A stretch of 63,656 nucleotides of DNA, counting the filler, from Tortispora ganteri (lineage: Eukaryota), in NCBI GenBank assembly GCA_003707115.1. It is 14 parts of 14 records of this genome, joined end to end, with 100 filler letters (N's around TTAATTAATTAA, not from the genome) between each part and the next. Parts side by side here need not be neighbours in the genome. Positions count along the whole stretch, not along the records: positions 53,307 to 57,733 come from PPNB01000080.1; 13 more parts are not named here. One strand, 5' to 3'. Below the pieces are notes generated by a model. That model ran no database searches and was not told the DNA's origin. It was given only the letters and a program-made list of their open reading frames with translations. The position numbers were made by a program, and so were the translations under genes. This document shows, piece after piece, positions 24,090-63,656 of this stretch (its first letter is position 1; each line of letters opens with the position of its first letter).

Positions 24090-24203
24090 TAACTTAGACT
24101 TAGCATACTCTGCACGTGCTTTATCACGAAGGAATCGTTGGAAAATTATGCCTGAATGCGACTTAGGAATCTCATCAATGATAACAACTCTTTTATCTAG
24201 CCA
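24090..24203 (-). pseudogene. 3'-terminal relic of a peroxisomal AMP-binding (4-coumarate-CoA-ligase-like) acyl-CoA synthetase; second copy at 28891..29016
   Basis: Translates WLDKRVVIIDEIPKSHSGIIFQRFLRDKARAEYAKSKL, cf. family C-terminus VDEIPKSPSGKILRR.LRD plus PTS1 SKL. Confidence 0.65.
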
Positions 24204-28634: not shown

Positions 28635-29946
28635 GAGCTTTGGTAGAGTATTTAGTTTATTGTGTGGGTTTATCTCTTTAATATTGTAATTTCCTAAGTT
28701 GATTATTGTGTCCATTGCATTATATTGATGTTAGCAGGAAAGGAACAGCACATTTCATACAGTGTCCGTTCCTATTCAAAACAGTAGAAAATATGTTGTT
28801 TACTACATTTAAATATAGCAGAATATCCATCAGAATTCACTGCAACAATTGGTATAGATAGACCAGGAGATTGCTCATGAACCACATTGATAACTAAGAC
28901 TTAGCATGTTGCTTGGCATACTCTGCACGTGCTTTATCACGAAGGAATCGTTGGAAAATTATGCCTGAATGCGACTTAGGAATCTCATCAATGATAACAA
29001 CTCTTTTATCTAGCCACGCGTTAAGTGAGAGAGAGAGGCAGCATGTTGTTGGTTAATTGGTTGGTTGGCGGGATTAGAAATGGTGCAGTGGAAACTGATA
29101 AAAACTACTATAAGAATCTCGAACTGTCAATAATAACTTTCTATTATGGTATCGGTTGCTGTTAATACGGAATTAACTAGGGCGATAGGATCGCAGTCTC
29201 CGGCAGTACGCTAGACAGCGGGAGACTGAATAGTTATGCACTTATTCAGAATATGACACTATCTATGGATTATGATCTGGTAGCCAGCAACAGTAACTGC
29301 AAAACTGCGAGGATACTGAAATAGTAAAATGTACCCCGCAAAAGCATCAAAAATATTTAAAAGTCAGTATACTGCAGCTGTCTAATAGGGATACGTGGGA
29401 TCCGGCACCACAATCCTATGTTTCCTATTCGGGTAAGAACTATAGAAACTTAAATCGAAGAGCCTTTTTTTTCCTGCGTAGTTCAATTGACTCGGTACGG
29501 CTTCTTTGGACCGCATTTATCTGTTTTAGAACTTGAAACGGCATTTGCATTTGCACATACAATCTGCGGAGATATTAATCAGATTTATGTAAGATTTTTG
29601 TGGGGTTTTGCTCCATTATAGTCTATAATTGTGATCGATGTTTTCTAGAACGCGTATCGAACTTTTCGCGTCAGACACTAAACTCCAAGATACTAGCGAT
29701 ATAGTTTAGCGGAAAATACAGAAAGCACAGAGACAAGTTTAGGTTAGTGTTTGTTAAGGTTTAAATAGGTCTACCGAAAAAAAAAGAAAAAAAACAATCC
29801 AAGGCTCTTTATTCTGGAAGCTGTGGTATCTGCTACTTCACTTTCCNNNNNNNNNNNNNNNNNNNNNNNNNNNNNNNNNNNNNNNNNNNNTTAATTAATT
29901 AANNNNNNNNNNNNNNNNNNNNNNNNNNNNNNNNNNNNNNNNNNNN

Positions 29947-34718: not shown

Positions 34719-37026
34719 CTGAGCCAGATGAAACTGAGCCAGATGAAACTGAGCCAGATGACGCTGAGCCAGATGACGCTGAGTTAAACGACGCTGAGCC
34801 AGATGACGCTGAGCCAGATGACGCTGAGCCAGATGACGCTGAGCCAGATGACGCTGAGCCAGATGACGCTGAGTTAGACGACGCTGAGCCAGATGACGCT
34901 GAGTTAGACGACGCTGAGTTAGACGACGCTGAGCCAGACGACACTGAGCCAGACGACACTGAGCCAGACGAGGTAGAGCCAGAAGACAACGATCCAGATG
35001 ACAACGATCCAGATGACAACGATCCAGATGACAACGATCCAGATGACAACGATCCAGATGACGCTGAGCCAGACGAAGCTAAGCCAGATGAGGCAGAGCC
35101 AGACGCTAACGATCCAGACGATAAAGATCCAGAAGACACTGAGCCAGACGAGGTAGAGCCAGAAGACAACGATCCAGATGACAACGATCCAGATGACGCC
35201 GATCCAGATGATAACGATCCAGATGATAACGATCCAGACAATAACGATCCAGACGATAATGATCCAGAAGACAATGAGCCAGACGATGTTGACACAGATG
35301 AAGCTGAGCCAGACAATAACGATCCAGACGATGCCGATCCAGAAGATAACGAGCCAGACGACGCCAACGAGCCAGAAGGTACCGATCCAGACGCTGCCGA
35401 TCCAGACGATGCCGATCCAGACGAGGCAGAGCCAGATGACGCTGAGTTAAACGACGCTGAGCCAGATGACGCTGAGCCAGACGAAGCTAAGCCAGACGAG
35501 GCAGAGCCAGACAACGCTGAATTAGACGACGCTGAGCCAGATAACACAGAGCCAGACGATGAGACTGCAGACGAGGCAAAACCAGACGACGTTGAGTTAG
35601 ACGACGCTGAGCCAGAAGACGCTGAGCCAGACGATGACATTACAGACGAGGTAGAGCCAGATGATGCTGAGTTAGACGACGCTGAGTTAGACGACGCTGA
35701 GTTAGACGACGCTGAGTTAGACGACGCTGAGTTAGACGACGCTGAGCCAGACAACGCTGAGCTAGAAGACAATGAGCTAGAAGACAATGATCCAGACGAG
35801 GCAGAGCCAGATGACGCTGAGTTAAACGACGCTGAGCCAGATGACGCTGAGCCAGATGACGCTGATTCAGATGACGCTGAGCCAGATGACGCTGAGCCAG
35901 ATGACGCAGATTCAGACGAGGCAGACTCAGATGAGGCAGAACCAGACGATAACGATCCAGATGAGGCAAAGCCAGACGATAACGATCCAGATGAAGCAGA
36001 GCCAGATGAAGCAGAGCCAGAAGAGACAGAGCCAGAGGATGCTGAGCCAGAGGATGCTGAACCAGAGGATGCTGAACCAGAGGATGCTGAACCAGAGGAT
36101 GACGCTGAATTAGACGACGCTGAGTTAGACGACGCAGAGCCAGAGGATGACGCTGAGTTAGACGACGCTGAATTAGACGACGCTGAATTAGACGACGCTG
36201 ATTCAGACGAGGCAGATCCAGACGAGGCAGAGCCAGAGGACGACGCTGAACCAGACGAGGCAGAGCCAGACGATGACATTACAGACGACGCTGAGCCAAA
36301 AGCAGAATTAGAACGTGTTGCAGAGCTGAAGCCAAAGCTAGACATATATTCGTCAGATAAGGAAGAACCCGACTGAGTAGGCGTAGAGTTAGCCGAAGCA
36401 GACGAAAGAGTTGTGTCAGCTGAAGTTGTAGTTATTAAAGACGAAGCAGACCTAATCTCTGACGATAAAATCGAAGTAGGCAGAGAAGTGATCGTACGTG
36501 ATCCGGCTGCCGGAGGCAGCAGTGTTCCGGAAGGAGGAATTGTAGTTGTTATTATCACGGGTACTTCAATAGAGATATCTATATCTATCCTTATTGATAT
36601 AGATACTTCCTCATAGTAAGACCAGACATAGGTACAGTCATTAGTGACTAGAGGAGGAGAAGGAATACAGGATATAACAGTAGGAACGCACTGATTGCAA
36701 TACCAACCTGTTGGGATAGTTTGATAGGGTGAGCATGAGTGATCATAAGCAGTTACCGGTGTAGCTTCAGGGACACCGCCTGCACCACCTGCAGTACCAC
36801 CAGAAAAGACATTAGTGTATCCGAAATCATTTGGATTTCCAGAGTCAGAGGTGTATCCACGTCCATAGACTGTCGTGGTAGTGACAACAGGAGGCTCGCA
36901 GACCAGGGTCTGCCACTCGGTGACGGTGCTCCATACGACGTTCTGCTGCTCTGGAATGGCAAGAGCTGCGGGATCTGCAGCCGGATGGGCTGCGCGCGCA
37001 GCGAGTGCATTCCACAAGTGAGGCAT
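34719..37026 (-). CDS. Divergent family member, 5' part: Cys-rich N-domain followed directly by a 15-bp (SSGSA/SSNSA) repeat stalk
   Basis: VVWSTVTEWQTLVCEPP...GWYCNQCVPTVISCIPSPPLVTNDCTYVWSYYEEVS; no first PA14-like domain seen. Confidence 0.75.
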
Positions 37027-44066: not shown

Positions 44067-44168
44067 NNNNNNNNNNNNNNNNNNNNNNNNNNNNNNNNNN
44101 NNNNNNNNNNTTAATTAATTAANNNNNNNNNNNNNNNNNNNNNNNNNNNNNNNNNNNNNNNNNNNNTG

Positions 44169-46583
44169 TCACCTAGTCTTTCGAGTGGTTTGGCATCTTC
44201 TTCAATAATCAGCAACTCAAGTCTGCTGTCGACCTCTTTCTTAAGCTTCTCGAGTGCTGTCGTGTCAACTTCTACATTTGGTAATTCAAGCATGTTGCCA
44301 AGTGCTTCAGTTGCTAGCTCGAGCGTTCTTGCGTCTTCAACGATTTTAAGCAATTCAAGTGTTGTATCAGTTTCATCGGTATTAAGCAACTCGAGCATCT
44401 TACCGACTTCGGCCTACAGTAATTCAAGTGCTTTACCGGTTACTTCGTCTGACGTCTCGAGCATTCTGTTTTCTTCATCGGTGTTTAGCAACTCAAGTGC
44501 TTTACCGACGTCGATTTACAGCAACTCAAGTCTCTTGCCCTCGTCGATCTACAGCAACTCGAGCGCCTTGCCATCATCAATTTACAGTAACTCGAGCGCC
44601 TTGCCGACGTCGATCTACAGCAACTCGAGTGTCATACCCTCTTCGATCTACAGCAACTCGAGCGTCTTGCCAACTTCGATCTTCAGCAACTCTACTGTCT
44701 TGCCATCTTCGATCTTCAGCAACTCTACTGTCTTGCCATCTTCGATCTTCAGCAACTCTACTGTCTTGCCATCTTCGATTTACAGCAACTCGAGCACCTT
44801 GCCGACGTCGATCTACAGCAACTCGAGTGTCATACCGACGTCGATCTACAGTAACTCAAGTGCTTTACCGACGTCGATTTACAGTAACTCGAGCGTCTTG
44901 CCGACGTCGATCTACAGCAACTCAAGTCTCTTGCCCTCGTCGATCTATAGTAACTCGAGCGTCTTGCCATCATCAATTTACAGTAACTCAAGTGCTTTAC
45001 CGACGTCCATCTACAGCAACTCGAGTGTCATACCCTCTTCGATCTACAGCAACTCGAGCGTCTTGCCAACTTCGATCTATAGTAACTCGAGTGTGTTACC
45101 AACATCGATCTACAGTAACTCAAGTGCTTTACCGACGTCGATTTACAGTAACTCGAGCGCCTTACCGACGTCGATCTACAGCAACTCGAGTGTCATACCG
45201 ACGTCGATCTACAGTAACTCAAGTGCTTTACCGACGTCGATTTACAGTAACTCGAGCGCCTTGCCGACGTCGATCTACAGCAATTCAAGCGCCTTACCGA
45301 CGTCGATATACAGCAACTCGAGTGTCTTAGCCTCTTCAATCTACAGCAACTCAAGTGCTTTACCGACGTCGATTTACAGTAACTCGAGCGTCTTGCCAAC
45401 GTCGATATACAGCAACTCGAGTGTCATACCGACGTCGATCTACAGCAACTCAAGTGCCTTGTCTACGTCGATCTACAGCAACTCGAGTGTCTGGCCGACG
45501 TCGATCTATAGTAACTCAAGTGTCTTACCATCTTCGATCTACAGCAACTCGAGCACCTTGCCAACTTCGATCTATAGTAACTCGAGCGTGTTACCGACGT
45601 CGATTTACAGCAACTCGAGCATCTTGCCCTCGTCAATCTATAGTAACTCGAGCGTGTTACCGACGTCGATTTACAGCAACTCAAGCGCCTTACCAACGTC
45701 GATCTACAGCAACTCGAGCGCCTTACCAACGTCGATCTACAGCAACTCAAGTGCCTTGTCTACGTCGATCTACAGCAACTCAAGCGCCTTGTCTACGTCG
45801 ATCTACAGTAACTCGAGTGTCTTACCCTCTTCAATCTACAGCAACTCTAGCGTCTTACCAACTTCGATCTACAGCAACTCTAGCACCTTACCGACTTCGT
45901 CTGGCAACTCAAGCGTCTTACCATCTTCGATCTACAGCAACTCTAGCACCTTACCGACTTCGTCTGGCAACTCAAGCGTCTTACCAAATTCGTCTGGCAT
46001 CTCAAGCATTCTATCATATTCATCGGAGTTAAGCACTTCGAGTTTCGATATCAGCACGTCCATCTCGGTTCAGTCGAGTTCGACCATCTCGAGTATCCCC
46101 AGCTGTGCAGTGACGTCTAACGCCTGCCAGTGCGAACCGTCGCAGATACTACTGGCGCGAGAATGGGCGGCGGATCTTATGGAGTACAATGAAACTCAGG
46201 TGGCTAACGGGGAATACAGGGTAGGGAATGCAAGCCATGTTGACGTATCAATTGAGGATACTTTAATGCAATTTTATGCTAGGAGCGAGGCAGTGACAGA
46301 GTTGCTGATGTATGTTCCCGGAACAAATAACATACTTGGCTTCTCTACGTTACTAGGTTTCGCAGATTACATAGGATATGCCTATATCGGGGAAGAGGCG
46401 ATGACGTGCTGGGACATGGAAAGAATTGGAAGCGGCGGATGGGAATATACGCACAGTAACGGCCAAGGATCATGGCTTCGCGGAGTACGATTTTTCAACG
46501 GGTGGACGCCGTTGCGAATAGTGGTCTACTCTGAGACAATGAAGGATTTTAGACTCAGCTTCCAGTTTTCTATATTTCGTTAA
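44169..46583 (+). CDS. Adhesin-like family member A6, 3' part: about 50 NSS repeats plus C-terminal PA14-like domain
   Basis: Open frame from contig edge; GYAYIGEEAMTC...NGWTPLRIVVY; ends FSIFR*. Confidence 0.82.
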   Translation, partial: SPSLSSGLASSSIISNSSLLSTSFLSFSSAVVSTSTFGNSSMLPSASVASSSVLASSTILSNSSVVSVSSVLSNSSILPTSAYSNSSALPVTSSDVSSILFSSSVFSNSSALPTSIYSNSSLLPSSIYSNSSALPSSIYSNSSALPTSIYSNSSVIPSSIYSNSSVLPTSIFSNSTVLPSSIFSNSTVLPSSIFSNSTVLPSSIYSNSSTLPTSIYSNSSVIPTSIYSNSSALPTSIYSNSSVLPTSIYSNSSLLPSSIYSNSSVLPSSIYSNSSALPTSIYSNSSVIPSSIYSNSSVLPTSIYSNSSVLPTSIYSNSSALPTSIYSNSSALPTSIYSNSSVIPTSIYSNSSALPTSIYSNSSALPTSIYSNSSALPTSIYSNSSVLASSIYSNSSALPTSIYSNSSVLPTSIYSNSSVIPTSIYSNSSALSTSIYSNSSVWPTSIYSNSSVLPSSIYSNSSTLPTSIYSNSSVLPTSIYSNSSILPSSIYSNSSVLPTSIYSNSSALPTSIYSNSSALPTSIYSNSSALSTSIYSNSSALSTSIYSNSSVLPSSIYSNSSVLPTSIYSNSSTLPTSSGNSSVLPSSIYSNSSTLPTSSGNSSVLPNSSGISSILSYSSELSTSSFDISTSISVQSSSTISSIPSCAVTSNACQCEPSQILLAREWAADLMEYNETQVANGEYRVGNASHVDVSIEDTLMQFYARSEAVTELLMYVPGTNNILGFSTLLGFADYIGYAYIGEEAMTCWDMERIGSGGWEYTHSNGQGSWLRGVRFFNGWTPLRIVVYSETMKDFRLSFQFSIFR

Positions 46584-48763
46584 ATTTTGTAATTATAAAT
46601 TGATGGTTTCAGCCGGTTGCGGGGACGAGAATAATATGATAGGTAGAGTGTGTGGTACTTAAGGAGATTGGGGAGATGATAGGTGGTTTGGGGTGGAGAA
46701 AAAGAACGACTGAGCAGTATTGATTTTGTTAATATGTGTGTTATTTGGAGATTAAGGGAAAAGTAGTGAACAGAAGTGGTTTCCCCTTTCAGTAATGATG
46801 TAAACGAGAAAGTAAAAACAGAGGAAGGTCAAGATGGTACCTACCAATGAATAGAGGATATATGTAATGTATAGATGAGATAATGTGGATTAAAAAGAAA
46901 TAGACATAGAAGTGGATGATAGTCTCGGCGATAGCGGAGATTAGGCGAGACCCCATATGATTGGACGAGGTTAAGGTAAGGTTCTGACAGATTCGCCGAT
47001 CCGGTCTGGCACCTATCGAGACATCTAGCTGTGTTGCTATCGACTCTAGAGCCGAATTGGAGCATTCGCGGTGATTTATACGTTATTCATGTTAAAAAAC
47101 GTAGTTGAAGCAGTTAAAAATGCTACTATGTGTGTAGCGATGAGTCGGAAACTGGCAGTAGTGGACAAAGCTTATACAACACCTGATTGTAACTGTAACT
47201 GTACAGTGCGAGTACAGCGTTCTCCATTTTGGTCTATTTAGCTCTGCATACTGGTGCCCACTCTGCATTGTTTATGTTATTGACCTGGACAATCGGTTGG
47301 CCGCGTGGAATACGTTCTTGCATTTCACTGCACTCAACGTAAAGTTTCATTTTTTCAGGATATGATATTCCTACGAGTGTTTAAATTTATATTTATAGAC
47401 ATATCTATTGATGCATTTTTGAGTAAATGCAGATGAATAAACGAGGAGTAGTCGTTGTGAATTCCCGAAAAAATCGATACTGAAAAATGTAGGTATCTGG
47501 AAAGCCGGTTGAACATATGTGATTAGAAATTAAAGTTTAACTAAATAAGCGGAAGGATACCGGTGCGATAATCGCAATTGTATTGCGGATTGGATAATGG
47601 TAGCAGTACCGACAAACCAATAAAATATTGAAGCAGAGAGTAACAGGCTTTAGATTTTGTTTCTTTGTTGCTGGAACGAGTGGACGGAATGTAGGAATTG
47701 TAGTAGAGTAAATGTTTCGAGCTACTCCTAATCCCGCCAACCAACCAACTAACGGCTTTCAGCCTCTATAACTTAGCGTGCACACAGCTATCGCAGCCTA
47801 TTTAATCGCTTAGTATATAAACTGCTCTAAATAAATAATTACCTTCTCCAGTTCTCAATAGATTTACCAGCGCGGTCCCGTATTATATATCCAACAATAA
47901 ACTTTCGCATCAACACGTTGCAGGCACGCTCCATAATCTAGCCGGAGCATCTCACATCTCCTCGCTGACTACTCTCCGTTTGTATGGACTACTATAAACT
48001 ATTTTGCTCTCAAAAATAAGCAGTCTTCGCCTACATGCGCCAAAGAAGTCGCGCAATTTCGCTTCTCGTCTGCATTCAAGGGTCGAATAGGCGGAATAAA
48101 CCCTAACCTGGTTTCAGGCGGCGCGAATTCCCAATATACTTTAGGCACATTAATCAAAGCCTTTTCCATATGACGTAGAAGGTATAAACATATAATCCGA
48201 CACCCTTTTACTTACCACCAACTTCTGTGCATTCATGGTTTCTTTGTATTCCAACAGAAGATCTCAAGGCGGCACTGTTGGTGCCGCTGGTTTACAGGTA
48301 AGTTCTTGTCCTGCTAATCTTTTCCTCCATGAATCGTGCATCGCGAGGCTTCCCCCCCAGGTACCCTGCATGAAGCCATTGAATGCATGATTTCTCGACC
48401 GTATAGAAAGCAGCAACTGTGAGGATCATGCGAATTTCGCCTTGTATTCAAATTTGTTGTTTTACGATCTATAACCACCCGCCCATGTGATGCCTCGTGT
48501 TACGCAGTCTGTCCTCAGGATGCTTCGGGCTATGGCTGCCTCCTATGCACTTGGATTCGCCGACCCAGGTTGCATCTCTTTTGTAGCCCAGCTTTTCTTC
48601 TCGTTGGAAGGCTTGTTCTATTTTTGCTCCATTCTTAACATGATTGGCGACGCAGTTATTGATNNNNNNNNNNNNNNNNNNNNNNNNNNNNNNNNNNNNN
48701 NNNNNNNTTAATTAATTAANNNNNNNNNNNNNNNNNNNNNNNNNNNNNNNNNNNNNNNNNNNN

Positions 48764-51127
48764 TCGATCTACAGCAACTCAAGTGCTTTACCGACGTCGA
48801 TTTACAGCAACTCAAGTGCCTTGTCTACGTCGATCTACAGCAACTCGAGTGTCTGGCCAACGTCGATCTACAGCAACTCAAGTGCCTTGTCTACGTCGAT
48901 CTACAGCAACTCGAGTGTCTGGCCGACATCGATCTATAGTAACTCAAGTGCCTTGTCTACGTCGATCTACAGCAACTCGAGTGTCTTGCCATCTTCGATC
49001 TATAGTAACTCGAGCGTGTTACCGACGTCGATTTACAGCAACTCGAGCGTCTTGCCAACTTCGATCTATAGTAACTCGAGCGTGTTACCGACGTCGATTT
49101 ATAGCAACTCGAGCGTCTTGCCCTCGTCAATCTACAGTAACTCGAGCGTGTTACCGACGTCGATTTATAGCAACTCGAGCGTCTTGCCCTCGTCAATCTA
49201 CAGTAACTCAAGTGCCTTGTCTACGTCGATTTACAGCAACTCAAGTCTCTTGCCCTCGTCGATCTATAGTAACTCAAGTGTCTTGCCATCTTCGATATAT
49301 AGTAACTCGAGTGTCTGGCCGTCGTCGATCTACAGCAACTCAAGTGCCTTGTCTACGTCGATCTACAGCAACTCGAGTGTCTGGCCGACATCGATCTATA
49401 GCAACTCGAGTGTCTGGCCGACGTCGATCTATAGTAACTCAAGTGTCTTACCATCTTCGATCTACAGCAACTCGAGCACCTTGCCAACTTCGATCTATAG
49501 TAACTCGAGCGTGTTACCGACGTCGATTTACAGCAACTCGAGCGTCTTGCCCTCGTCGATCTATAGTAACTCAAGTGCCTTGTCTACGTCGATCTACAGC
49601 AACTCGAGCGCCTTGCCATCATCAATTTACAGCAACTCAAGTGCCTTGTCTACGTCGATCTACAGCAACTCGAGCGCCTTGCCATCATCAATTTACAGCA
49701 ACTCGAGCGCCTTACCAGCGTCGATCTACAGTAACTCGAGCACCTTGCCATCATCAATTTACAGCAACTCGAGCGCCTTACCAGCGTCGATCTACAGTAA
49801 CTCGAGCACCTTACCAACGTCGATCTACAGCAACTCGAGCGCCTTACCAACGTCGATCTACAGCAACTCAAGTGCCTTACCAACGTCGATCTACAGCAAC
49901 TCAAGTGCCTTGCCATCATCAATTTACAGCAACTCAAGTGCCTTACCAACGTCGATCTACAGCAACTCAAGTGCCTTGTCTACGTCGATCTACAGCAACT
50001 CGAGCACCTTGCCGACTTCGTCTGGCAACTCAAGCGTCTCACCCTCGTCAATCTACAGCAACTCGAGCGTGTTACCGACGTCGTCTGGCAACTCAAGCGC
50101 CTTACCAACGTCGATCTACAGCAACTCGAGCGCCTTACCTACGTCGATTTACAGCAACTCAAGTGCCTTGTCTACGTCGATCTACAGCAACTCAAGCGCC
50201 TTGTCTACGTCGATCTACAGCAACTCGAGTGTCTTACCCTCTTCAATCTACAGCAACTCAAGCGCCTTGTCTACGTCGATCTACAGTAACTCGAGTGTCT
50301 TGCCCTCTTCAATCTACAGCAACTCAAGCGTCTTACCAACTTCGATCTACAGCAACTCGAGTGTCTTGCCCTCTTCAATCTACAGCAACTCAAGCGTCTT
50401 ACCATCTTCGATCTACAGCAACTCTAGCACCTTACCGACTTCGTCTGGCAACTCAAGCGTCTTACCAAATTCGATCTACAGCAACTCGAGCACCTTACCG
50501 ACTTCGTCTGGCAACTCAAGCGTCTTACCAAATTCGTCTGGCATCTCAAGCATTCTATCATATTCATCGGAGTTAAGCACTTCGAGTTTCGATATCAGCA
50601 CGTCCATCTCGGTTCAGTCGAGTTCGACCATCTCGAGTATCCCCAGCTGTGCAGTGACGTATAACGCCTGCCAGTGCGAACCGTCGCAGATACTACTGGC
50701 GCGAGAATGGGCGGCGGATCTTATGGAGTACAATGAAACTCAGGTGGCTAACGGGGAATACCGGGTAGGGAATGCAAGCCATGTTGACGTATTAATTACG
50801 GATACTTCCATGGAATTTTTTGCTAATAGCAAGGTAGTGACAGAGTTTCTGATGTATGTTCCCGGAACAAATAGCATACTTGACTTCTCTTCGCCAATAG
50901 GTTTCACAGGTTACATAGGATATGCCTATATCGGGGAAGAGGCGATGACGTGCTGGGATATGGAAAGAATTGGAAGCGGCGGATGGGAATATACGCACAG
51001 TAACGGCCAAGGATCATGGCTTGGCGGAGTACGATTTTTCAACGGGTGGACGCCGTTGCGAATAGTGATCTACCCTGAGAGAATGGAGTATTTTTCTCTC
51101 AGCTTCCACAATTCTATATTTCGTTAA
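48764..51127 (+). CDS. Adhesin-like member A7 (allele or recent duplicate of A6), 3' part: over 55 NSS repeats plus C-terminal domain
   Basis: Same 2.08-kb downstream flank as A6; variant C-domain. Confidence 0.82.
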   Translation, partial: SIYSNSSALPTSIYSNSSALSTSIYSNSSVWPTSIYSNSSALSTSIYSNSSVWPTSIYSNSSALSTSIYSNSSVLPSSIYSNSSVLPTSIYSNSSVLPTSIYSNSSVLPTSIYSNSSVLPSSIYSNSSVLPTSIYSNSSVLPSSIYSNSSALSTSIYSNSSLLPSSIYSNSSVLPSSIYSNSSVWPSSIYSNSSALSTSIYSNSSVWPTSIYSNSSVWPTSIYSNSSVLPSSIYSNSSTLPTSIYSNSSVLPTSIYSNSSVLPSSIYSNSSALSTSIYSNSSALPSSIYSNSSALSTSIYSNSSALPSSIYSNSSALPASIYSNSSTLPSSIYSNSSALPASIYSNSSTLPTSIYSNSSALPTSIYSNSSALPTSIYSNSSALPSSIYSNSSALPTSIYSNSSALSTSIYSNSSTLPTSSGNSSVSPSSIYSNSSVLPTSSGNSSALPTSIYSNSSALPTSIYSNSSALSTSIYSNSSALSTSIYSNSSVLPSSIYSNSSALSTSIYSNSSVLPSSIYSNSSVLPTSIYSNSSVLPSSIYSNSSVLPSSIYSNSSTLPTSSGNSSVLPNSIYSNSSTLPTSSGNSSVLPNSSGISSILSYSSELSTSSFDISTSISVQSSSTISSIPSCAVTYNACQCEPSQILLAREWAADLMEYNETQVANGEYRVGNASHVDVLITDTSMEFFANSKVVTEFLMYVPGTNSILDFSSPIGFTGYIGYAYIGEEAMTCWDMERIGSGGWEYTHSNGQGSWLGGVRFFNGWTPLRIVIYPERMEYFSLSFHNSIFR

Positions 51128-53306
51128 ATTTTGTAATTATAAATTGATGGTTTCAGCCGGTTGCGGGGACGAGAATAATATGATAGGTAGAGTGTGTGGT
51201 ACTTAAGGAGATTGGGGAGATGACAGGTGGTTTGGGGTGGAGAAAAAGAACGACTGAGCAGTATTGATTTTGTTAATATGTGTGTTATTTGGAGATTAAG
51301 GGAAAAGTAGTGAACAGAAGTGGTTTCCCCTTTCAGTAATGATGAAAACGAGAAAGTAAAAACAGAGGAAGGTCAAGATGGTACCTACCAATGAATAGAG
51401 GATATATGTAATGTATAGATGAGATAATGTGGATTAAAAAGAAATAGACATAGAAGTGGATGATAGTCTCGGCGATAGCGGAGATTAGGCGAGACCCCAT
51501 ATGATTGGACGAGGTTAAGGTAAGGTTCTGACAGATTCGCCGATCCGGTCTGGCACCTATCGAGACATCTAGCTGTGTTGCTATCGACTCTAGAGCCGAA
51601 TTGGAACATTCGCGGTGATTTATACGTTATTCATGTTAAAAAACGTAGTTGAAGCAGTTAAAAATGCTACTATGTGTGTAGCGATGAGTCGGAAACTGGC
51701 AGTAGTGGACAAAGCTTGTACAACACCTGATTGTAACTGTAACTGTACAGTGCGAGTACAGCGTTCTCCATTCTGGTCTATTTAGCTCTGCATACTGGTG
51801 CCCACTCTGCATTGTTTATGTTATTGACCTGGACAATCGGTTGGCCGCGTGGAATACGTTCTTGCATTTCACTGCACTCAACGTAAAGTTTCATTTTTTC
51901 AGGATATGATATTCCTACGAGTGTTTAAATTTATTTTTATAAACATATCTATTGATGCATTTTTGAGTAAATGCAGATGAATAAACGAGGAGTAGTCGTT
52001 GTGAATTCCCGAAAAAATCGATACTGAAAAATGTAGGTATCTGGAAAGCCGGTTGAACATATGTGATTAGAAATTAAAGTTTAACTAAATAAGCGGAAGG
52101 ATACCGGTGCGATAATCGCAATTGTATTGCGGATTGGATAATGGTAGCAGTACCGACAAACCAATAAAATATTGAAGCAGAGAGTAACAGGCTTTAGATT
52201 TTGTTTCTTTGTTGCTGGAACGAGTGGACGGAATGTAGGAATTGTAGTAGAGTAAATGTTTCGATCTACTCCTAATCCCGCCAACCAACCAACTAACGGC
52301 TTTCAGCCTCTATAACTTAGCGTGCACACAGCTATCGCAGCCTATTTAATCGCTTAGTATATAAACTGCTCTAAATAAATAATTACCTTCTCCAGTTCTC
52401 AATAGATTTACCAGCGCGGTCCCGTACTATATATCCAACAATAAACTTTCGCATCAACACGTTGCAGGCACGCTCCTTAATCTAGCCGGAGCATCTCACA
52501 TCTCCTCGCTGACTACTCTCCGTTTGTATGGACTACTATAAACTATTTTGCTCTCAAAAATAAGCAATCTTCGCCTACATGCGCCGAAGAAGTCGCGCAA
52601 TTTCGCTTCTCGTCTGCATTCAAGGGTCGAATAGGCGGAATAAACCCTAACCTGGTTTCAGGCGGCGCGAATTCCCAATATACTTTAGGCACACTATTCA
52701 AAGCCTTTTCCATATGACGTAGAAGGTATAAACATATAATCCGACACCCTTTTACTTACCACCAACTTCTGTGCATTCATGGTTTCTTTGTATTCCAACA
52801 GAAGATCTCAAGGCGGCACTGTTGGTGCCGCTGGTTTACAGGTAAGTTCTTGTCCTGCTAATCTTTTCCTCCATGAATCGTGCATCGCGAGGCTTCCCCC
52901 CAGGTACCCTGCATGAAGCCATTGAATGCATGATTTCTCGACCGTATAGAAAGCAGCAACTGTGAGGATCATGCGAATTTCGCCTTGTATTCAAATTTGT
53001 TGTTTTTCGATCTATAACCACCCGCCCATGTGATGCCTCGTGTTACGCAGTCTGTCCTCAGGATGCTTCGGGCTATGGCTGCCTCCTATGCACTTGGATT
53101 CGCCGACCCAGGTTGCATCTCTTTTGTAGCCCAGCTTTTCTTCTCGTTGGAAGGCTTGTTCTATTTTTGCTCCATTCTTAACATGATTGGCGACGCAGTT
53201 ATTGATNNNNNNNNNNNNNNNNNNNNNNNNNNNNNNNNNNNNNNNNNNNNTTAATTAATTAANNNNNNNNNNNNNNNNNNNNNNNNNNNNNNNNNNNNNN
53301 NNNNNN

Positions 53307-56300
53307 GAACGAGTGAAGTCTCCTTTGATTGCTGCAATGCATGCTTGATTATCTTCGTAAAGTGCAACGCCTTCAGGATGCTGTATCCCTATTTCTGATA
53401 GCTTTCGTTTAAGATAAACGGCTTCAACGGCGGCAGAAGATATAGCAACGTATTCTGCATGCGCTGTGGCAAGTGCAGTTACTTTTTGCTTGACTGAGGC
53501 CCAAGCAATGGGGCCACCAGCTTGAAATAGAACCCAGCCTGTGGTTGATTTGCAATCCGTGCGATTTTGATAACTGGCATCAGCATATCCATGTATGTGC
53601 TCATCAGCTCCATACTTGTAGAGTATACCTTGGTCTTTTGTATATTTGAGATATTGAAAGATTCGTTTGACGGCATTCCAGTGTGCCTTGGTAGGACAAG
53701 TGGAGAAAGATGCTAGAGCATTCACAGAAAATGCTATATCAGGACGAGTGAGATTTGCAAGAAACATCAGCGTCCCTATTGCACTTCTGAACTCATTGAA
53801 GTCCTCATTGGGTTGAGGTTTTGTAATGATGTCCAGTCCTACAGCCATTGGAGTAAATTTCTCAGCAGCGTCAGTTAATTCGAATCTGGCCAGTGCTCGT
53901 TCTATGAAGAAACTTTGAGATATATGAATGCCTTCGTCAGTGTGTTTGACGTTGAGGCTCAGAAACGAGGAAATTGGTTGTTGAATTGATGCAGTATACT
54001 TAGAGTTTAGTTGATGATGAAATTCAAGGATTAAATCCTCAGATTCTGCAATGACTGCAATATCATCAACATAAATCGCAAGCATAATGTTCTTTTTATA
54101 AAAGAAGCAATCATCATAAGTGTTCTGAGTAAAACCCAGTTCTTTGATGGTTTCAACTAAGGTTTCATTCCAGCGTCTTGGAGCCTGTTTGAGACCATAT
54201 AGAGTTTTCTTGAGTTTGCAGACTCTGTCTGTTCCGTCTTCGAACCCTTGAGGTTGTTTCATATAAACATTTTCTTCCAGTTTAGCATTGAGAAAGGCTG
54301 TCTCGACGTCGATTTGTGCTGTGTACCAATTTCTGGAGGCAGCAATTGCAAGGAGCATCCGTACCATTGTATAGGAGGCCACGCTTGCATAAACTTCGTC
54401 GAAATTCAGTCCTTTTATTTGCTGAAAACCTTTTGCAACGAGTCTAGCTTTGAACTTGTCAAAGACACCTTCAGCTGTCTCTTTGACTCTGAAGACCCAC
54501 ATGTTATCAATTGGTTTGATGCCTGGTGGGCATTTGACCAGTTCCCATGTTCCTTTTGCGATTAGGGAAGTTAATTCGGAGTTGCATGCCTCATTCCATT
54601 TATCTTTGAGCAAAGATTTTTGAGCTTGGACGATGGACTTAGGCGGGTCAGTTACTTCAGGTAACAAAAGGTACTCATCGACTGCGACCTTGTTTGAAGC
54701 TGAATTTGTAGTTCTTCCTTTCTGAGAGAAGGTAAGATATATTGATTCGGTCGATAATTTGCCAATTTTTGGCAGTTTGGACTTTCGAATCATCAAAGCT
54801 CCTACTTCGTTGATTCTCCCTCGCTTTGGTGATGCGGGAGGAGATAGGCCGATGTTGGTGGGTGCAGGCAGAATTCGTAGATACTCCCTCGAACTTGAGA
54901 TGTCAGTATTGAACCAAGTGACAGCAGAGGATGCTGTATAAAAGATCCTATGCTGAGTAGCACTGTTAAAGAATTCCATGCCGGGGAAGACAGATTCAGA
55001 GAATTTGGCCAGTATACCTAGGAAGGTACGACCATCAGGGGAGATAAACAGATAACCTTTTATGGTGTTGTGATACCCGAGAAAGATACCAGGTATCGCA
55101 TGAGGTCCAAACTTCGTTTTGCTCCTATTTGGGGGAGTAACATAGGCCAGACATCCAAATGGATGAAGAAAACCTGGATGTTGTTTTCGACCAAACATTC
55201 CTTCCAAAGGAGACATATCATTTGGTAGATTACCGAAGCTTATTCTGTTATGAGTATCAGTTACAAACTTAAGGGCATCAGGCCAAAAAGTCTGAGATAA
55301 TCCTGATTGAACCAGTACCGTTCGAGTAACATCCGTCATGGTTTGGATAGCACGTTCAGCAGCTCCATTCTGCTGAGGAGTACCAGGAAGGGAATTCTGA
55401 ATGACACCTCCTTCAATATTGACAAATTCTTCAAGAGTGTGATTGATAATTTCAGTTCCGTTGTCGGCGCGAATTATCTGAAGAGGTTTTCCTGTGAGAT
55501 TGATGCACGATTTTAACCAACTAACGAGCTTTTCAGAAAGATTAGCTTTGGTCGGGGATGGAAATACCGTAGTAAAGTGTGTATAATCATCTCTAATGAG
55601 AAGAAAATACCGTTCACCTTCCCGTCCGATTGGTCTAACTGGACCACAGGTGTCAACATGGACAACACCAAGAGGTCTAGTGGCACGATTCGGGGACGAA
55701 GTGAAGGAGTGTCTTATGCGTTTGCCTTCATTGCATGCAACACAGTCCTGACTGTTAAGCCGTGAATCGATCTGATTGTGTTTCAGAGTACGGTTCACAA
55801 GATCATCACCGAAGTGACCGTAGCGAGCATGCCAATCTTTCATAGATGCATTGGCAATAATTGCATAAGTGCCTATACTAAGTGGTAGGCTAGGATCATT
55901 TGATGTCGACATAGTCAGAATAGGAAGACTTGACTCTTGATCATAGCTCCCTCCAAAGGTAAAACCACTTGGATAGGTTACATTCCAAGAATCTTTTCCA
56001 AACTGAACACGAGCATCATCTTGAGTGAGTCTGCTCACAGAGATAATGTTAATATTTCCTAACTCAGGAAAGATACGAACCCCTGTAAGTTTTAGAGTTC
56101 GGCCGCCGTGGAGTGCAAGTGATGTCGAACCAACTAGGTCTGAGTATGTGTTGTATCCTCCAAACTGCATGTTAATACCGTTTGCACGATCAATTATCTC
56201 AAAGCATTGGCCACCACTTACGTGAGCAGAGGCACCACTGTCAAGAATCCAAACATTTCCAGAAGAAATTGTTGTAGGCTTGACCGAAGCATTGAGCGTG

Positions 56301-57514
56301 CTGATCGCTACAAGACATGGTTTGTTTGCGGATTCAACAGTTAACGGACCAGAATTTTGGTTTGATAGGGCCTCTTTAAGGCGACGACAATCTTGAGCAG
56401 AATGACCCTGTTTGGAGCAGTAAATGCAGGTAATAGGACCAGCAGTGTTCCGATTGAAGCGTCCACTTTTCGATCCTTTCTTCTTGTTGTTCTTGGACAA
56501 TTTTTGAGAGTATTCAGATTTATGTCCATGAAGCACAAGAGGCTTGGAGATTGCTGAATTTCCGTAGTTTTGATTGAACTTCGCATATCGGAGATATCTA
56601 TCAGCGATCGACTGAGCAGAAGGTAGAGGTTCATTCTTCCTGGCAGCTTCTTTCAATTCTTCAGTCATAGTAGTAACTATGCCTGACTCAGGTATGTTTG
56701 TTGGCAGGATTTGTAAGAAGTGAGCGAGAACAGCATAGTTGAGAGAAGGGTCAAGAATGTCAATTCTTTCAGCCATCCTAACGTATTTTTCCACTGCTTC
56801 ATCCACCGCAATTCGAGTAGTGTTAGAGTGGTCAATCTTATAGCTTATGGCTTGATGGAGTAAGTCATCAGCAACTTGGCCACTTGAGGCATAAGCATTT
56901 AGGTATGCTCTTTCCATGATTTGGCACAAAGTTGGAGCAGTATGCTTTCCATCTGCGCCTAGATAATCAACATATTCAGGATTGCCAGCCAAATTGTGTT
57001 GAATTTTCCTTAGAGAGTCTGGAGTGACAATTGCCAAAAGAACTAATTTGGCTTGATTATGTTCAACAAATCGCCAATGTCTTGGAAGTCTTAGGCCCGT
57101 AGTACTAAAGACTGAGTGTTCTTCCAGGTAAGGTTCCTCTTTTATCCAACGGGAAATCTTTAAAGGATGTTGGCTTGAGTTAGCACTGCCAAGTATGTTT
57201 GACAGCAAAAACTTGACATCGCTATAGGATTCAGCATCTAAGACATATTTCTTCTGAATGCCCTGAAGAGCAGTTTGAAATGTGCTTCTGATTGAGCTGG
57301 CTAACTTCTCAGCGTTGATGCTTTCAAGAATCCTTATTTCCTCGGAGTTGTTAGACAGATCATGAATTTCTTCATGAGTTAACAAGGTACGTTCAGAAGG
57401 TCGTGAAGTTTCTTCAAGAACCTCAGAGGCTTCTGGAATATTAATGTCATTGTTTGTTCCAGTTGGAACTTCACTTTGAATAGTGCGACGAGCGCGTCCT
57501 CGAGTTTCTGTCAT
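53307..57514 (-). CDS. Gag-Pol polyprotein (Gag CCHC, protease, integrase, RT, RNase H), 3' truncated
   Basis: CIYCSKQGHSAQDC; WILDSGAS; WHARYGH..CVAC; HVDTCGP/RADNGTE/NGAAER; KARLVAKGF, LYGLKQA, YVDD; GYADAS, AEYVA, YEDNQAC; PR-IN-RT order. Confidence 0.97.
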
Positions 57515-57517
57515 TGA

Positions 57518-57535
57518 AGCTTTCGGCTTTTAACC
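57518..57535 (-). other. Primer-binding site complementary to the anticodon arm of tRNA-Lys(UUU); also 62045..62062
   Basis: Minus strand CAACA|GGTTAAAAGCCGAAAGCT; + strand AGCTTTCGGCTTTTAACC versus yeast tRNA-Lys(UUU) ...AGCGTTCGGCTTTTAACC... (recalled from memory). Confidence 0.8.
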
Positions 57536-57833
57536 TGTTGGAGAACTACCTGGATTAGGGTAGTGTAGCTTAGGGTTTAGAGCGCAATGAACAGAAACTA
57601 CGTGATAGTACGTTAAGTATTAGAAAGAGGGAAACCTTGACCTATTACGAGTCTGGGCTAAAACCCTCTGATAGTACGATATTCGAATGTCGTAGAGTGA
57701 GTTATTGTTGAGTCTTCAGGAACCTGTAGTTGCNNNNNNNNNNNNNNNNNNNNNNNNNNNNNNNNNNNNNNNNNNNNTTAATTAATTAANNNNNNNNNNN
57801 NNNNNNNNNNNNNNNNNNNNNNNNNNNNNNNNN

Positions 57834-60800
57834 GAACGAGTGAAGTCTCCTTTGATTGCTGCAATGCATGCTTGATTATCTTCGTAAAGTGCAACGCCTT
57901 CAGGATGCTGTATCCCTATTTCTGATAGCTTTCGTTTAAGATAAACGGCTTCAACGGCGGCAGAAGATATAGCAACGTATTCTGCATGCGCTGTGGCAAG
58001 TGCAGTTACTTTTTGCTTGACTGAGGCCCAAGAGATGGGGCCACCAGCTTGAATTAGAACCCAGCCTGTGGTTGATTTGCAATCCGTGCGATTTTGATAA
58101 CTGGCATCAGCATATCCATGTATGTGCTCATCAGCTCCATACTTGTAGAGTATACCTTGGTCTTTTGTATATTTGAGATATTGAAAGATTCGTTTGACGG
58201 CATTCCAGTGTGCCTTGGTAGGACAAGTGGAAAAAGATGCTAGAGCATTCACAGAAAATGCTATATCAGGACGAGTGAGATTTGCAAGAAACATCAGCGT
58301 CCCTATTGCACTTCTGAACTCATTGAAGTCCTCATTTGGTTGAGGTTTTGTAATGATGTCCAGTCCTACAGCCATTGGAGTAAATTTCTCAGCAGCGTCA
58401 GTTAATTCGAATCTGGCCAGTGCTCGTTCTATGAAGAAACTTTGAGATATATGAATACCTTCGTCAGTGTGTTTGACGTTGAGGCTCAGAAACGAGGAAA
58501 TTGGTTGTTGAATTGATGCAGTATACTTAGAGTTTAATTGATGATGAAATTCAAGGATTAAATCCTCAGATTCTGCAATGACTGCAATATCATCAACATA
58601 AATCGCAAGCATAATGTTCTTTTTATAAAAGAAGCAATCATCATAAGTGTTCTGAGTAAAACCCAGTTCTTTGATGGTTTCAACTAAAGTTTCATTCCAG
58701 CGTCTTGGAGCCTGTTTGAGACCATATAGAGTTTTCTTGAGTTTGCAGACTCTGTCTGTTCCGTCTTCGAACCCTTGAGGTTGTTTCATATAAACATTTT
58801 CTTCTAGTTTAGCATTGAGAAAGGCTGTCTCGACGTCAATTTGTGCAGTGTACCAATTTCTGGAGGCAGCAATTGCAAGGAGCATCCGTACCATAGTGTA
58901 GGAGGCCACGCTTGCATAAACTTCGTCGAAATTCAGTCCTTTTATTTGCTGAAAACCTTTTGCAACGAGTCTAGCTTTGAACTTGTCAAAGACACCTTCA
59001 GCTGTCTCTTTGACTCTGAAGACCCACATGTTATCAATTGGTTTGATGCCTGGTGGGCATTTGACCAGTTCCCATGTTCCTTTTTCGATTAGGGAAGTTA
59101 ATTCGGAGTTGCATGCCTCATTCCATTTATCTTTGAGCAAAGATTTTTGAGCTTGGACGATGGACTTAGGCGGGTCAGTTACTTCAGGTAACAAAAGGTA
59201 CTCATCGACTGCGACCTTGTTTGAAGCTGAATTTGTAGTTCTTCCTTTCTGAGAGTAGGTAAGATATATTGATTCGGTCGATAATTTGCCAATTTTTGGC
59301 AGTTTGGACTTTCGAATCATCAAAGCTCCTACTTCGTTGATTCTCCCTCGCTTTGGTGATGCGGGAGGAGATAGGCCGATGTTGGTGGGTGCAGGCAGAA
59401 TTCGTAGATACTCCCTCGAACTTGAGATGTCAGTATTAAACCAAGTGACAGCAGAGGATGCTGTATAAAAGATCCTATGCTGAGTAGCACTGTTAAAGAA
59501 TTCCATGCCGGGGAAGACAGATTCAGAGAATTTGGCCAGTATACCTAGGAAGGTACGACCATCAGGGGAGATAAACAGGTAACCTTTTATAGTGTTGTGA
59601 TACCCGAGAAAGATACCAGGTATCGCATGAGGTCCAAACTTCGTTTTGCTCCTATTTGGGGGAGTAACATAGGCCAGACATCCAAATGGATGAAGAAAAC
59701 CTGGATGTTGTTTTCGACCAAACATTCCTTCCAAAGGAGACATATCATTTGGTAGATTACCGAAGCTTATTCTGTTATGAGTATCGGTTACAAACTTAAG
59801 GGCATCAGGCCAAAAAGTCTGAGATAATCCTGATTGAACTAGTACCGTTCGAGTAACATCCGTCATGGTTTGGATAGCACGTTCAGCAGCTCCATTCTGC
59901 TGAGGAGTACCAGGAAGGGAATTCTGAATGACACCTCCTTCAATATTCACAAATTCTTCAAGAGTGTGATTGATAATTTCAGTTCCGTTGTCGGCGCGAA
60001 TTATCTGAAGAGGTTTTCCTGTGAGGTTGATGCACGATTTTAACCAACTAACGAGCTTTTCAGAAAGATTAGCTTTGGTCGGGGATGGAAATACCGTAGT
60101 AAAATGTGTATAATCATCTCTAACGAGAAGAAAATACCGTTCACCTTCACGTCCGATTGGTCTAACTGGACCACAGGTGTCAACATGGACAATACCAAGA
60201 GGTCCAGTAGCACGATTCGGGGACGAAGTGAAGGAGTGTCTTATGCGTTTGCCTTCATTGCATGCAACACAGTCCTGACTGTTAAGCCGTGAATCGATCT
60301 GATTGTGTTTCAGAGTACGGTTCACAAGATCATCACCGAAGTGACCGTAGCGAGCATGCCAATCTTTCATAGATGCATTGGCAATAACTGCATAAGTGCC
60401 TATACTAAGTGGTAGGCTAGGATCATTTGATGTCGACATAGTCAGAATAGGAAGACTTGACTCTTGATCATAGCTCCCTCCAAAGGTAAAACCACTTGGA
60501 TAGGTTACATTCCAAGAATCTTTTCCAAACTGAACACGAGCATCATCTTGAGTTAGTCTGCTCACAGAGATAATGTTAATATTTCCTAACTCAGGAAAGA
60601 TACGAACCCCTGTAAGTTTTAGAGTTCGGCCGCCGTGGAGTGCAAGTGATGTCGAACCAACTAGGTCTGAGTATGTGTTGTATCCTCCAAACTGCATGTT
60701 AATACCGTTTGAACGATCAATTATTTCAAAGCATTGGCCACCACTTACGTGAGCAGAGGCACCACTGTCAAGAATCCAAACATTTCCAGAAGAAATTGTT

Positions 60801-62041
60801 GTAGGCTTGACCGAAGCATTGAGTGTGCTGATCGCCACAAGACATGGTTTGTTTGCGGATTCAACAGTTAACGGACCAGAATTTTGGTTTGATAGGGCCT
60901 CTTTGAGGCGACGACAATCTTGAGCAGAATGACCCTGTTTGGAGCAGTAAATGCAGGTAATAGGACCAGCAGTGTTCCGATTGAAGCGACCACTTTTAAA
61001 TCCTTTCTTCTTGTTGTTCTTGGACAATTTTTGAGAGTATTCAGATTTATGTCCATGAAGCACAAGAGGCTTGGAGATTGCTGAATTTCCGTAGTTTTGA
61101 TTGAACTTCGCATATCGGAGATATCTGTCAGCGATCGACTGAACAGAAGGTAGAGGTTCATTCTTCCTGGAAGCTTCTTTCAATTCTTCAGTCATAGTAG
61201 TGACTATGCCTGACTCAGGTATGTTTGTTGGCAGGATTTGCAAGAAGTGAGCGAGAACAGCATAGTTGAGAGAAGGGTCAAGAATGTCAATTCTTTCAGC
61301 CATCCTAACGTATTTTTCCACTGCTTCATCCACCGCAATTCGAGTAGTGTTAGAGTGGTCAATCTTATAGCTTATGGCTTGATGGAGTAAGTCATCAGCA
61401 ACTTGGCCACTTGAGGCATAAGCATTCAGGTATGCTCTTTCCATGATTTGGCACAAAGTTGGAGCAGTATGCTTTCCATCTGCGCCTAGATAATCAACAT
61501 ATTCAGGATTTCCAGCCAAATTGTGTTGAATTTTCCTTAGAGAGTCTGGAGTGACAATTGCCAAAAGAACTAATTTGGCTTGATTATGTTCAACAAATCG
61601 CCAATGTCTTGGAAGTCTTAGGCCCGTAGTACTAAAGACTGAGTGTTCTTCCAGGTAAGGTTCCTCTTTTATCCAACGGGAAATTCTTAAAGGATGTTGG
61701 CTTGAGTTAGCACTGCCAAGTATGTTTGACAGCAAAAACTTGACATCGCTATAGGATTCAGCATCTAAGACATATTTCTTCTGAATGCCCTGAAGAGCAG
61801 TTTGAAATGTGCTTCTGATTGAGCTGGCTAACTTCTCAGCGTTGATGCTTTCAAGAATCCTTATTGCCTCGGAGTTGTTAGACAGATCATGAATTTCTTC
61901 ATGAGTTAACAAGGTACGTTCAGAAGGTCGTGAGGTTTCTTCAAGAACCTCAGAGGCTTCTGGAATATTAATGTCATTGTTTGTTCCAGTTGGAACTTCA
62001 CTTTGAATAGTGCGACGAGCGCGTCCTCGAGTTTCTGTCAT
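57834..62041 (-). CDS. Gag-Pol polyprotein, copy 2, 3' truncated
   Basis: Uninterrupted ORF; about 14 amino-acid differences from copy 1. Confidence 0.97.
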
Positions 62042-62260
62042 TGAAGCTTTCGGCTTTTAACCTGTTGGAGAACTACCTGGATTAGGGTAGTGTAGCTTAG
62101 GGTTTAGAGCGCAATGAACAGAAACTACGTGATAGTACGTTAAGTATTAGAAAGAGGGAAACCTTGACCTATTATGAGTCTGGGCTAAAACCCTCTGATA
62201 GTACGATATTCGAATGTCGTAGAGTGAGTTGTTGTTGAGTCTTCAGGAACCTGTAGTTGC
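57834..62260 (-). mobile_element. Ty1/copia retrotransposon, copy 2 (partial 5' LTR 62063..62260)
   Basis: Same length and breakpoints as copy 1; scattered substitutions. Confidence 0.96.
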
Positions 62261-62362
62261 NNNNNNNNNNNNNNNNNNNNNNNNNNNNNNNNNNNNNNNN
62301 NNNNTTAATTAATTAANNNNNNNNNNNNNNNNNNNNNNNNNNNNNNNNNNNNNNNNNNNNGT

Positions 62363-63656
62363 TCAGCATCCTCTGGTTCAGCATCCTCTGGCTCAGCATC
62401 CTCTGGCTCAGCATCCTCTGGCTCTGTCTCCTCTGGTTCAGCTTCTTCTGGCTCTGCCTCGTCTGGCTCTACCTCGTCTGTAGTGTCATCGTCTGGATCA
62501 TTGTCTTCTGGCTCTGCCTCGTCTGGATCTGCCTCGTCTGGATCGTTGTCTTCTGGATCAGCGTCGTCTGGCTCTGCCTCGTCTGGATCGTTGTCTTCTG
62601 GATCGTTATCGTCTGGCTCTGCGTCGTCTAACTCAGCGTCGTCTAACTCAGCGTCGTCTAATTCAGCGTCGTCTAATTCAGCGTCGTCTGGATCATTGTC
62701 TTCTGGCTCAGCCTCGTCTGGCTCTGCCTCGTCTGGATCTGCGTCGTCTAACTCAGCGTCGTCTAATTCAGCGTCGTCTAACTCAGCATCGTCTAACTCA
62801 GCTTCCTCTGGCTCTGCCTCGTCTGACTCAGCGTCATCCTCTGGCTCTACCTCGTCTGTAGTGTCATCCTCTGGCTCTACCTCGTCTGGCTCTACGTCTT
62901 CTGGTTCAGCTTCGTCTGGCTCTGCCTCGTCTGGCTCTGCCTCGTCTGGCTCTACCTCGTCTGTAGTGTCATCGTCTGGCTCAGCTTCCTCTGGCTCTGC
63001 CTCGTCTGGATCTGCCTCGTCTGGCTCTGCCTCGTCTGGATCTGCCTCGTCTGGATCGTTGTCTTCTGGCTCTGCCTCGTCTGGCTCTACCTCGTCTGTA
63101 GTGTCATCCTCTGGCTCTGCCTCCTCTGGTTCAGCTTCCTCTGGCTCTGCCTCGTCTGGTTCAGCATCCTCTGGTTCAGCATCCTCTGGTTCAGCATCCT
63201 CTGGTTCAGCTTCCTCTGGCTCTGCCTCGTCTGGTTCAGCATCCTCTGGTTCAGCATCCTCTGGTTCAGCATCCTCTGGTTCAGCATCCTCTGGCTCAGC
63301 ATCCTCTGGCTCAGCATCCTCTGGCTCTGTCTCCTCTGGTTCAGCTTCTTCTGGCTCTGCCTCGTCTGGCTCTACCTCGTCTGTAGTGTCATCGTCTGGA
63401 TCAGCGTCGTCTGGCTCAGCTTCGTCTGGCTCAGCTTCGTCTGTAGTGTCATCCTCTGGCTCTGCCTCGTCTGACTCAGCGTCATCCTCTGGCTCTGCCT
63501 CGTCTGGATCAGCGTCGTCTAACTCAGCATCCTCTGGCTCTGTCTCCTCTGGTTCAGCATCCTCTGGTTCAGCATCCTCTGGTTCAGCTTCCTCTGGCTC
63601 TGCCTCGTCTGGTTCAGCATCCTCTGGTTCAGCATCCTCTGGTTCAGCATCCTCTA
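62363..63656 (+). repeat. 15-bp coding minisatellite (SSGSA)n, open reading frame throughout; internal stalk of a family gene
   Basis: tca gca tcc tct ggt units; same unit types as 34719-36300 on the opposite strand. Confidence 0.9.

Follow-up and report, generated by a model that had tools for sequence, protein, structure and literature searches.

Putative half-tRNA-Lys(UUU) priming in a Ty1/copia retrotransposon from a divergent budding yeast

Introduction

Priming of reverse transcription by a half-tRNA is established for copia and Ty5, both of which use tRNA-iMet, and cDNA synthesis in such hemiviruses is described as starting from nt 40, whose 3'-OH lies in the anticodon stem-loop (PMC1181622); the same nt-40 criterion for hemivirus-type elements is found in the ICTV profile (PMC8515867). 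The half-tRNA and internal tRNA primers in print, as far as the available portions of the sources extend, comprise iMet, Arg, Ile, Tyr, Asp/Asn and, for FunCo1, an internal region of tRNA-Lys. Seven primer-site classes have been distinguished in Candida albicans, including internal tRNA-Arg(UCU) and internal iMet, and none of those given in the accessible text is Lys (PMC4139406). The plant Copia elements Bianca, Osser, Bryco and Gymco-II are reported to use half tRNA-Met and half tRNA-Ile (Neumann 2019, PMC6317226). Among the rust fungi, the half-tRNA sites of Copia families and of the non-autonomous Helenus elements fit the mature tRNA of intron-bearing genes, and at least five primer changes have been inferred among the rust-fungus Copia elements, according to the available part of that study (Kojima 2024, PMC10886601).

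Here we describe two copies of a Ty1/copia element in DNA from Tortispora ganteri in which the minus-strand primer site appears to pair with nt 23-40 of the spliced cytoplasmic tRNA-Lys(UUU), pointing to half-tRNA priming in a hemivirus-type element; we put the probability of this reading, which is drawn from sequence, at roughly 0.8.

Two copies of a Ty1/copia element

The window, by which we mean the whole stretch of 63,656 bases that was analysed, is made up of 14 small contigs, from 5050 down to 1296 bp in length, joined by N44-TTAATTAATTAA-N44 linkers. Because it is a set of joined contigs representing more than one locus, adjacency across the linkers has no meaning. The 12th and 13th contigs (53307-57733 and 57834-62260, each 4427 bp) carry the element, both copies lying on the minus strand, and the features referred to below are as follows.

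5051-5150, 10187-10286 and so on to 62261-62360: linkers, between contigs ordered by falling length
53307..57514, minus strand: copy 1 gag-pol, open over 1402 codons up to the contig end, which falls inside RNase H
57518..57535, minus strand: copy 1 putative primer binding site GGTTAAAAGCCGAAAGCT, complement of tRNA-Lys(UUU) nt 23-40
57536..57733, minus strand: copy 1 5' LTR, last 198 nt, with the end ...TCTCCAACA, its 5' side cut by the contig end
57834..62041, minus strand: copy 2 gag-pol, 1402 codons without a stop
62045..62062, minus strand: copy 2 putative primer binding site, identical to that of copy 1
62063..62260, minus strand: copy 2 5' LTR, last 198 nt, with two differences from copy 1

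Both copies are cut by the contig ends, and the LTR start, PPT, 3' LTR and flanks fall outside the contigs. The two differ at 51 of 4427 positions (98.85% identity), with no differences at all between element positions 87 and 326, a segment that includes the primer site. Within gag-pol, 33 of the differing codons are synonymous and 14 non-synonymous (pN/pS approximately 0.13) and neither copy contains a stop; this ratio, together with the open frames, fits copies descended from a replicating element.

Judged from its coding sequence, the element is a member of the Ty1/copia group (Pseudoviridae) with a single predicted gag-pol frame of at least 1402 codons. The initial annotation, which had been made from the DNA sequence, called it a copia element, and this is borne out by Pfam and by the order of motifs within the single frame, namely gag CCHC, PR, IN, RT and RH, which is the Ty1/copia order. 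The strongest Pfam assignment was RVT_2 (E 2.7e-67, aa 989-1223), accompanied by rve (aa 612-700), Pol_BBD (aa 422-499), SH3_retrovirus and a sub-threshold gag_pre-integrs. In copy 1 the CCHC motif is at aa 363, DSGA at aa 425, YVDD at aa 1148 and YADAS at aa 1310; integrase occupies aa 562-700, with an HHCC-like stretch at aa 562, and reverse transcriptase aa 989-1223. The full set of catalytic motifs is found in both copies.

A search of 5.8 billion protein clusters returned polyprotein matches of which the best, among those listed, were 30-41% identical, and the 120 listed included neither a close family member nor any reference named as Ty5, Tca or FunCo1. At this level of identity, none of the described proteins in the collection is a close relative of the element. 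No polyprotein relatives were found in viral contigs.

A putative primer site flush with the LTR

On the minus strand, the LTR end CAACA (57540..57536) is followed directly by GGTTAAAAGCCGAAAGCT, then by TCA and then by the ATG at 57514, and the spacing between primer site and gag ATG is thus 3 nt. The initial annotation had read these letters directly after CAACA at 57518..57540, with no TGG, and had noted the same 18-mer at 62045..62062; the letters are confirmed at both places, on the minus strand, and no TGG occurs in the 25 nt after CAACA. The 18-mer contains an in-frame TAA, and because of this stop and the 3 nt that remain before the ATG there is no space for another primer site. When up to three mismatches were allowed, the 18-mer was found at only two sites in the window, against an expectation of 0.00 from 100 shuffles.

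The pentamer CAACA is the canonical end of yeast Ty1/copia LTRs, in which TGTTG...CAACA tips are typical, in so far as the available portions of the sources describe them (PMC4139406; bioRxiv 2025.04.25.647736), and of the hallmarks of yeast Ty1/copia LTR structure (such tips, a PPT before the 3' LTR and a 5-bp target duplication) the contigs contain just the CAACA tip of the 5' LTR. No further LTR copy, whether 3' or solo, was found within the window, and it is thus the CAACA tip, in place of a second LTR, that defines the putative LTR boundary. Searches with the junction of LTR and site gave no exact match in viral contigs; a 16-nt version gave at least 120 matches in prokaryote genome contigs, in bacterial MAGs, which are uninformative because this is approximately the number expected by chance for a 16-mer in 596 billion bases.

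The site matches tRNA-Lys(UUU) up to nt 40

The candidate primer was examined in two collections of tRNA genes. For viral contigs, the query was a 17-mer consisting of the complement of the first 14 letters of the site plus the three bases that close the anticodon stem; at least 117 stretches were found and 80 listed, and 20 of those 80 (11 with no gap and nine with a gap of 1-2 nt) were given to ARAGORN. Among these listed matches, a tRNA-Lys(ttt) was called in 8 of the 11 zero-gap stretches and a tRNA in none of the nine gapped ones. The anticodon arm starts at tRNA nt 26-29 in the eight genes, and the full 18-mer is matched at 18/18 positions in three of them (L007, L034 and L049), at 17/18 in four and at 16/18 in one, the mismatches being confined to nt 26 and the D stem. 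The three contigs with a complete match are phage or giant-virus contigs, nt 23-40 of whose tRNA-Lys(UUU) are the exact complement of the site in the yeast element.

For metagenomes, the pattern required an insert of 8-38 nt after CTTTTA and yielded 45 loci. ARAGORN, run with the -i option, called 42 of the 45 as tRNA-Lys(ttt), 41 of these with an intron after the anticodon, while one of the other three was called differently and two were not tRNAs. Most of the genes are of yeast type, reading ...AGAGCGTTCGGCTTTTA[intron]ACCGAAATG..., and the spliced tRNA therefore reads ...CTTTTAACC; the yeast type matches the site at 17/18 positions, the odd position being nt 26. At that position the 42 genes have G in 39 cases, A in three and T in none, and a perfect match to the site needs T. 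Because the anticodon arm was itself fixed by the pattern used to fetch them, these loci do not constitute an unbiased survey of yeast anticodon arms. Likewise, the S. cerevisiae tK(UUU) probe given for northern blots in PMC3568405 contains the site at 17/18 positions.

The claim in the initial annotation that the stem of the site matches yeast tRNA-Lys(UUU) thus stands, given the 17/18 match to yeast-type genes and to the S. cerevisiae probe and the 18/18 match in 3 of 8 viral-contig genes. The site covers the D stem's 3' strand, then nt 26, the anticodon stem's 5' strand, the anticodon loop in full and, on the 3' strand of that stem, its first two bases. Pairing ends at nt 40 because G41 would face the last A of CAACA, with which it cannot pair. 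The annotation had also held that the hemivirus register is kept, with a fragment end near nt 39-40, and it agrees in this with the position of cDNA initiation given in the available text of PMC1181622. The duplex has a predicted energy of -29.2 kcal/mol with a tRNA of the 18/18 type and of -25.0 kcal/mol with one of the 17/18 type. Since the paired segment crosses the junction of the two exons in tRNA genes that carry an intron, only the mature, spliced tRNA can pair with the site. Letters 10-15 of the site (CCGAAA) are those of tRNA nt 39-44, and letters 16-18 (GCT) those of nt 10-12.

The host and its own tRNA-Lys(UUU) gene

No tRNA gene was found in the window by ARAGORN, or by Rfam at gathering score. 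The initial annotation had proposed that the site be checked against the host's own tRNA-Lys(UUU), and for this purpose two public sequencing runs of one organism (X1 and X2; contigs of approximately 10 million letters) were used, in which 71-72% of the sampled words of the element are present. The run contigs were aligned to a yeast-type metagenome tRNA-Lys(UUU) gene (L132:261-386, with the gene at 281-366). One contig from each run (1076 and 1166 nt) matches positions 288-319 of this reference with one other letter and no gap, a stretch that corresponds to tRNA nt 8-37 plus the first two letters of the intron; 12 unmatched letters follow, after which the 3' exon begins with ACCGAAATGTCCAGGGTT. 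From these contigs we conclude that the organism carrying the element has an intron-containing tRNA-Lys(UUU) gene with an intron of approximately 14 nt.

By the contig alignment, the spliced host tRNA departs from the yeast type at no more than one of nt 23-40. The proposed check thus came out in favour of the annotation: contigs of both runs hold the gene, and pairing between host tRNA and site is 17 or 18/18, with a worst case of 16/18, the place of the single differing letter not being given by the alignment. Pairing is 18/18 if this letter is a change of G26 to T, and 17/18 if it falls outside nt 23-37. The acceptor stem's 5' strand in the host's tRNA-Lys(UUU) is unlike that of other yeast-type genes, with four mismatches immediately ahead of nt 8, at which the alignment ends. 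Of two runs from other organisms compared with the same tRNA reference, X5 gave nothing and X3 gave a 41-letter piece with seven other letters, and both were set aside.

Elsewhere in the window, a Prp19 homologue is encoded at 18185-19699 (plus strand) as an intron-less frame of 504 aa, and its best named matches, which include Debaryomyces fabryi (the nearest) and Metschnikowia, are approximately 31-34% identical over most of the length. This divergence indicates that the host is a divergent budding yeast without a close relative in the protein collection. Judged by sequence criteria, classification of the element as a hemivirus-type Ty1/copia LTR retrotransposon of such a yeast is supported.

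Comparison with described elements

The element resembles Ty5 and Drosophila copia (Hemivirus) in having the Ty1/copia gene order, a site flush with an LTR that ends in CAACA, and pairing that ends at nt 40. It differs from them in that the tRNA is Lys(UUU) rather than initiator Met, and in that the tRNA gene has an intron whose splice junction falls within the segment paired by the site. Membership of the Ty5 family was considered and rejected, as the site has AAA opposite a UUU anticodon and the matching genes are Lys(ttt). The single gag-pol frame is a feature in common with Tca5, and a site that matches an internal region of a non-initiator tRNA in a yeast Ty1/copia element is a feature in common with the Tca2-type elements of Candida albicans (gamma and whio LTRs, for example), although the tRNA of the latter is Arg(UCU), as described in the accessible part of the source (PMC4139406).

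A tRNA-Lys is also the reported partner of FunCo1, a clade of Copia elements of filamentous ascomycetes whose site is described as complementary to an internal region of tRNA-Lys (Donnart et al. 2017, PMC5445492). Unlike the 18-nt site described here, the printed FunCo1 site, ATTAAGAGTCT, is of 11 nt, and its hosts are Pezizomycotina (PMC5445492). On our reading of this 11-mer, its AAG is the complement of a CUU anticodon, which would make the tRNA a different isoacceptor, and the complement of the FunCo1 site has no match in the tRNA loci that were fetched. Membership of the FunCo1 clade was rejected because the site differs from ATTAAGAGTCT, the comparison being one of primer sites alone. 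The element is also unlike those of rust fungi and plants, whose hosts are basidiomycetes or plants and among whose named half-tRNA primers, in the available portions of the two papers, tRNA-Lys(UUU) does not figure (PMC10886601, PMC6317226).

Our literature search, made by subject words and by site sequence, found no printed case of a Lys(UUU) half-primer, although an earlier mention may exist. Full-text searches with 11-mers from the site returned no retrotransposon paper, and those with the copia and Ty5 site strings quoted in the initial annotation returned only unrelated primer and probe lists. The suggestion made there, that no fungal element with this primer had been described, therefore survives in part: no Lys(UUU) half-primer was found, whereas an internal tRNA-Lys site is in print for FunCo1 (PMC5445492). 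The novelty expected at that stage was too high, and what remains is modest, because published work already includes diverse half-tRNA primers, an internal tRNA-Lys site and sites that span introns.

Alternative explanations

Several other accounts of the 18-mer have to be set against half-tRNA priming. The boundary of the LTR might be misplaced, or the tRNA match fortuitous, with the 18-mer lying inside the LTR or leader and the true primer site elsewhere or absent; the window holds no second LTR by which the end could be fixed, which leaves some room for this. Nevertheless, CAACA is the canonical tip, the leader between it and the gag ATG cannot accommodate another site, and the shuffled-sequence expectation of 0.00 occurrences at up to three mismatches, along with exact equality to a tRNA segment, speaks against coincidence. 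We consider this account very unlikely as a whole, and chance is excluded because an exact match to a tRNA segment stands at the expected place. Self-priming of the kind known from Tf1, in which the transcript's own 5' end, folded onto the site and cleaved, serves as primer, would make the likeness to a tRNA secondary. Transcription would start in the 5' part of the LTR, which is outside both contigs and could hold a complementary stretch; yet the first 600 nt available (198 nt of LTR, the leader and the start of gag) contain nothing that would pair with the site over 6 nt or more, and self-priming would not predict an exact 18-nt tRNA match ending at the hemivirus position. To this explanation we give slightly less credence still than to a misplaced boundary.

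Somewhat more weight, though still little, is due to the view that the family is no longer mobile and the site a relic, or that the site binds the whole tRNA-Lys(UUU) for packaging or translational control. Just two copies were seen, both truncated, no RNA run is among those listed for the element, and the start codon is only 3 nt away from the site. Against a relic, both frames are intact and a pN/pS of 0.13 fits recent replication under selection. Against a role other than priming, a whole tRNA annealed through its anticodon arm has no paired 3' end, and the element would be left without any primer site. We accordingly regard a relic or a non-priming role as improbable and favour half-tRNA priming.

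A possible mechanism and its significance

Our working model of half-tRNA priming by tRNA-Lys(UUU), in which cleavage of the tRNA, its annealing in particles and priming itself are all inferred, is as follows. The element RNA would carry R-U5-PBS, and a fragment from the 5' side of tRNA-Lys(UUU), with C40 as its last nucleotide and a free 3'-OH, would anneal to the 18-nt site, this fragment having presumably been produced by a cut in the anticodon stem, as is reported for copia and Ty5 with tRNA-iMet. Reverse transcriptase would then extend the primer into U5, the first template base being the last A of CAACA, to give minus strong-stop DNA, and later plus-strand synthesis would recopy the primer and so renew the site. 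If the host tRNA has G26, the A of the site opposite nt 26 would mimic the natural 26-44 tertiary pair. The same tRNA species, tRNA-Lys(UUU), is used by HIV-1, by its 3' end.

A broader proposal can be offered only tentatively, and we think it rather doubtful: that this is the first half-tRNA-primed retroelement on tRNA-Lys(UUU), that the site is a strand-for-strand stand-in for the tRNA's own partners, and that, taken with the iMet, Arg, Ile, Tyr and Asp cases, it suggests a cut placed by the end of the duplex between tRNA and site and not by tRNA identity. What the element adds is one tRNA species and a budding-yeast host to the Ty1/copia elements that prime from the middle of a tRNA. It is a useful example of how freely such primers can be exchanged, and might serve as a natural system in which to study how the cut at nt 40 is made; the point that only a spliced tRNA can pair has already been made for the rust-fungus elements, and the picture of how Ty1/copia elements work is unchanged.

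Other contigs in the window

Several contigs of the window resemble one another. Contigs 5 and 6 (20259-25035 and 25136-29846) are 97.6% alike over 4.5 kb, each with a sugar transporter of 515 aa, contigs 10 and 11 (44167-48663 and 48764-53206) are 92% alike, and contigs 1, 2, 3, 5, 6, 7 and 9 have blocks of 75-93% similarity in common. These near-copies have the look of repeated gene families, subtelomeric perhaps, or of haplotype variants. Degenerate internal tandem repeats fill long open frames at 340-5046 (minus strand), 44190-46583 (plus strand), 48821-51127 (plus strand), 34719-36300 and 62361-63656. No convincing Pfam family was found in these frames, the assignments being a weak Pentapeptide_2 in contig 14 and a sub-threshold CoV_NSP15_N at 44190-46583. 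The repeat of contig 14 is common to contig 8, and the tandem-repeat frames are possibly repeat-rich wall or adhesin-like genes.
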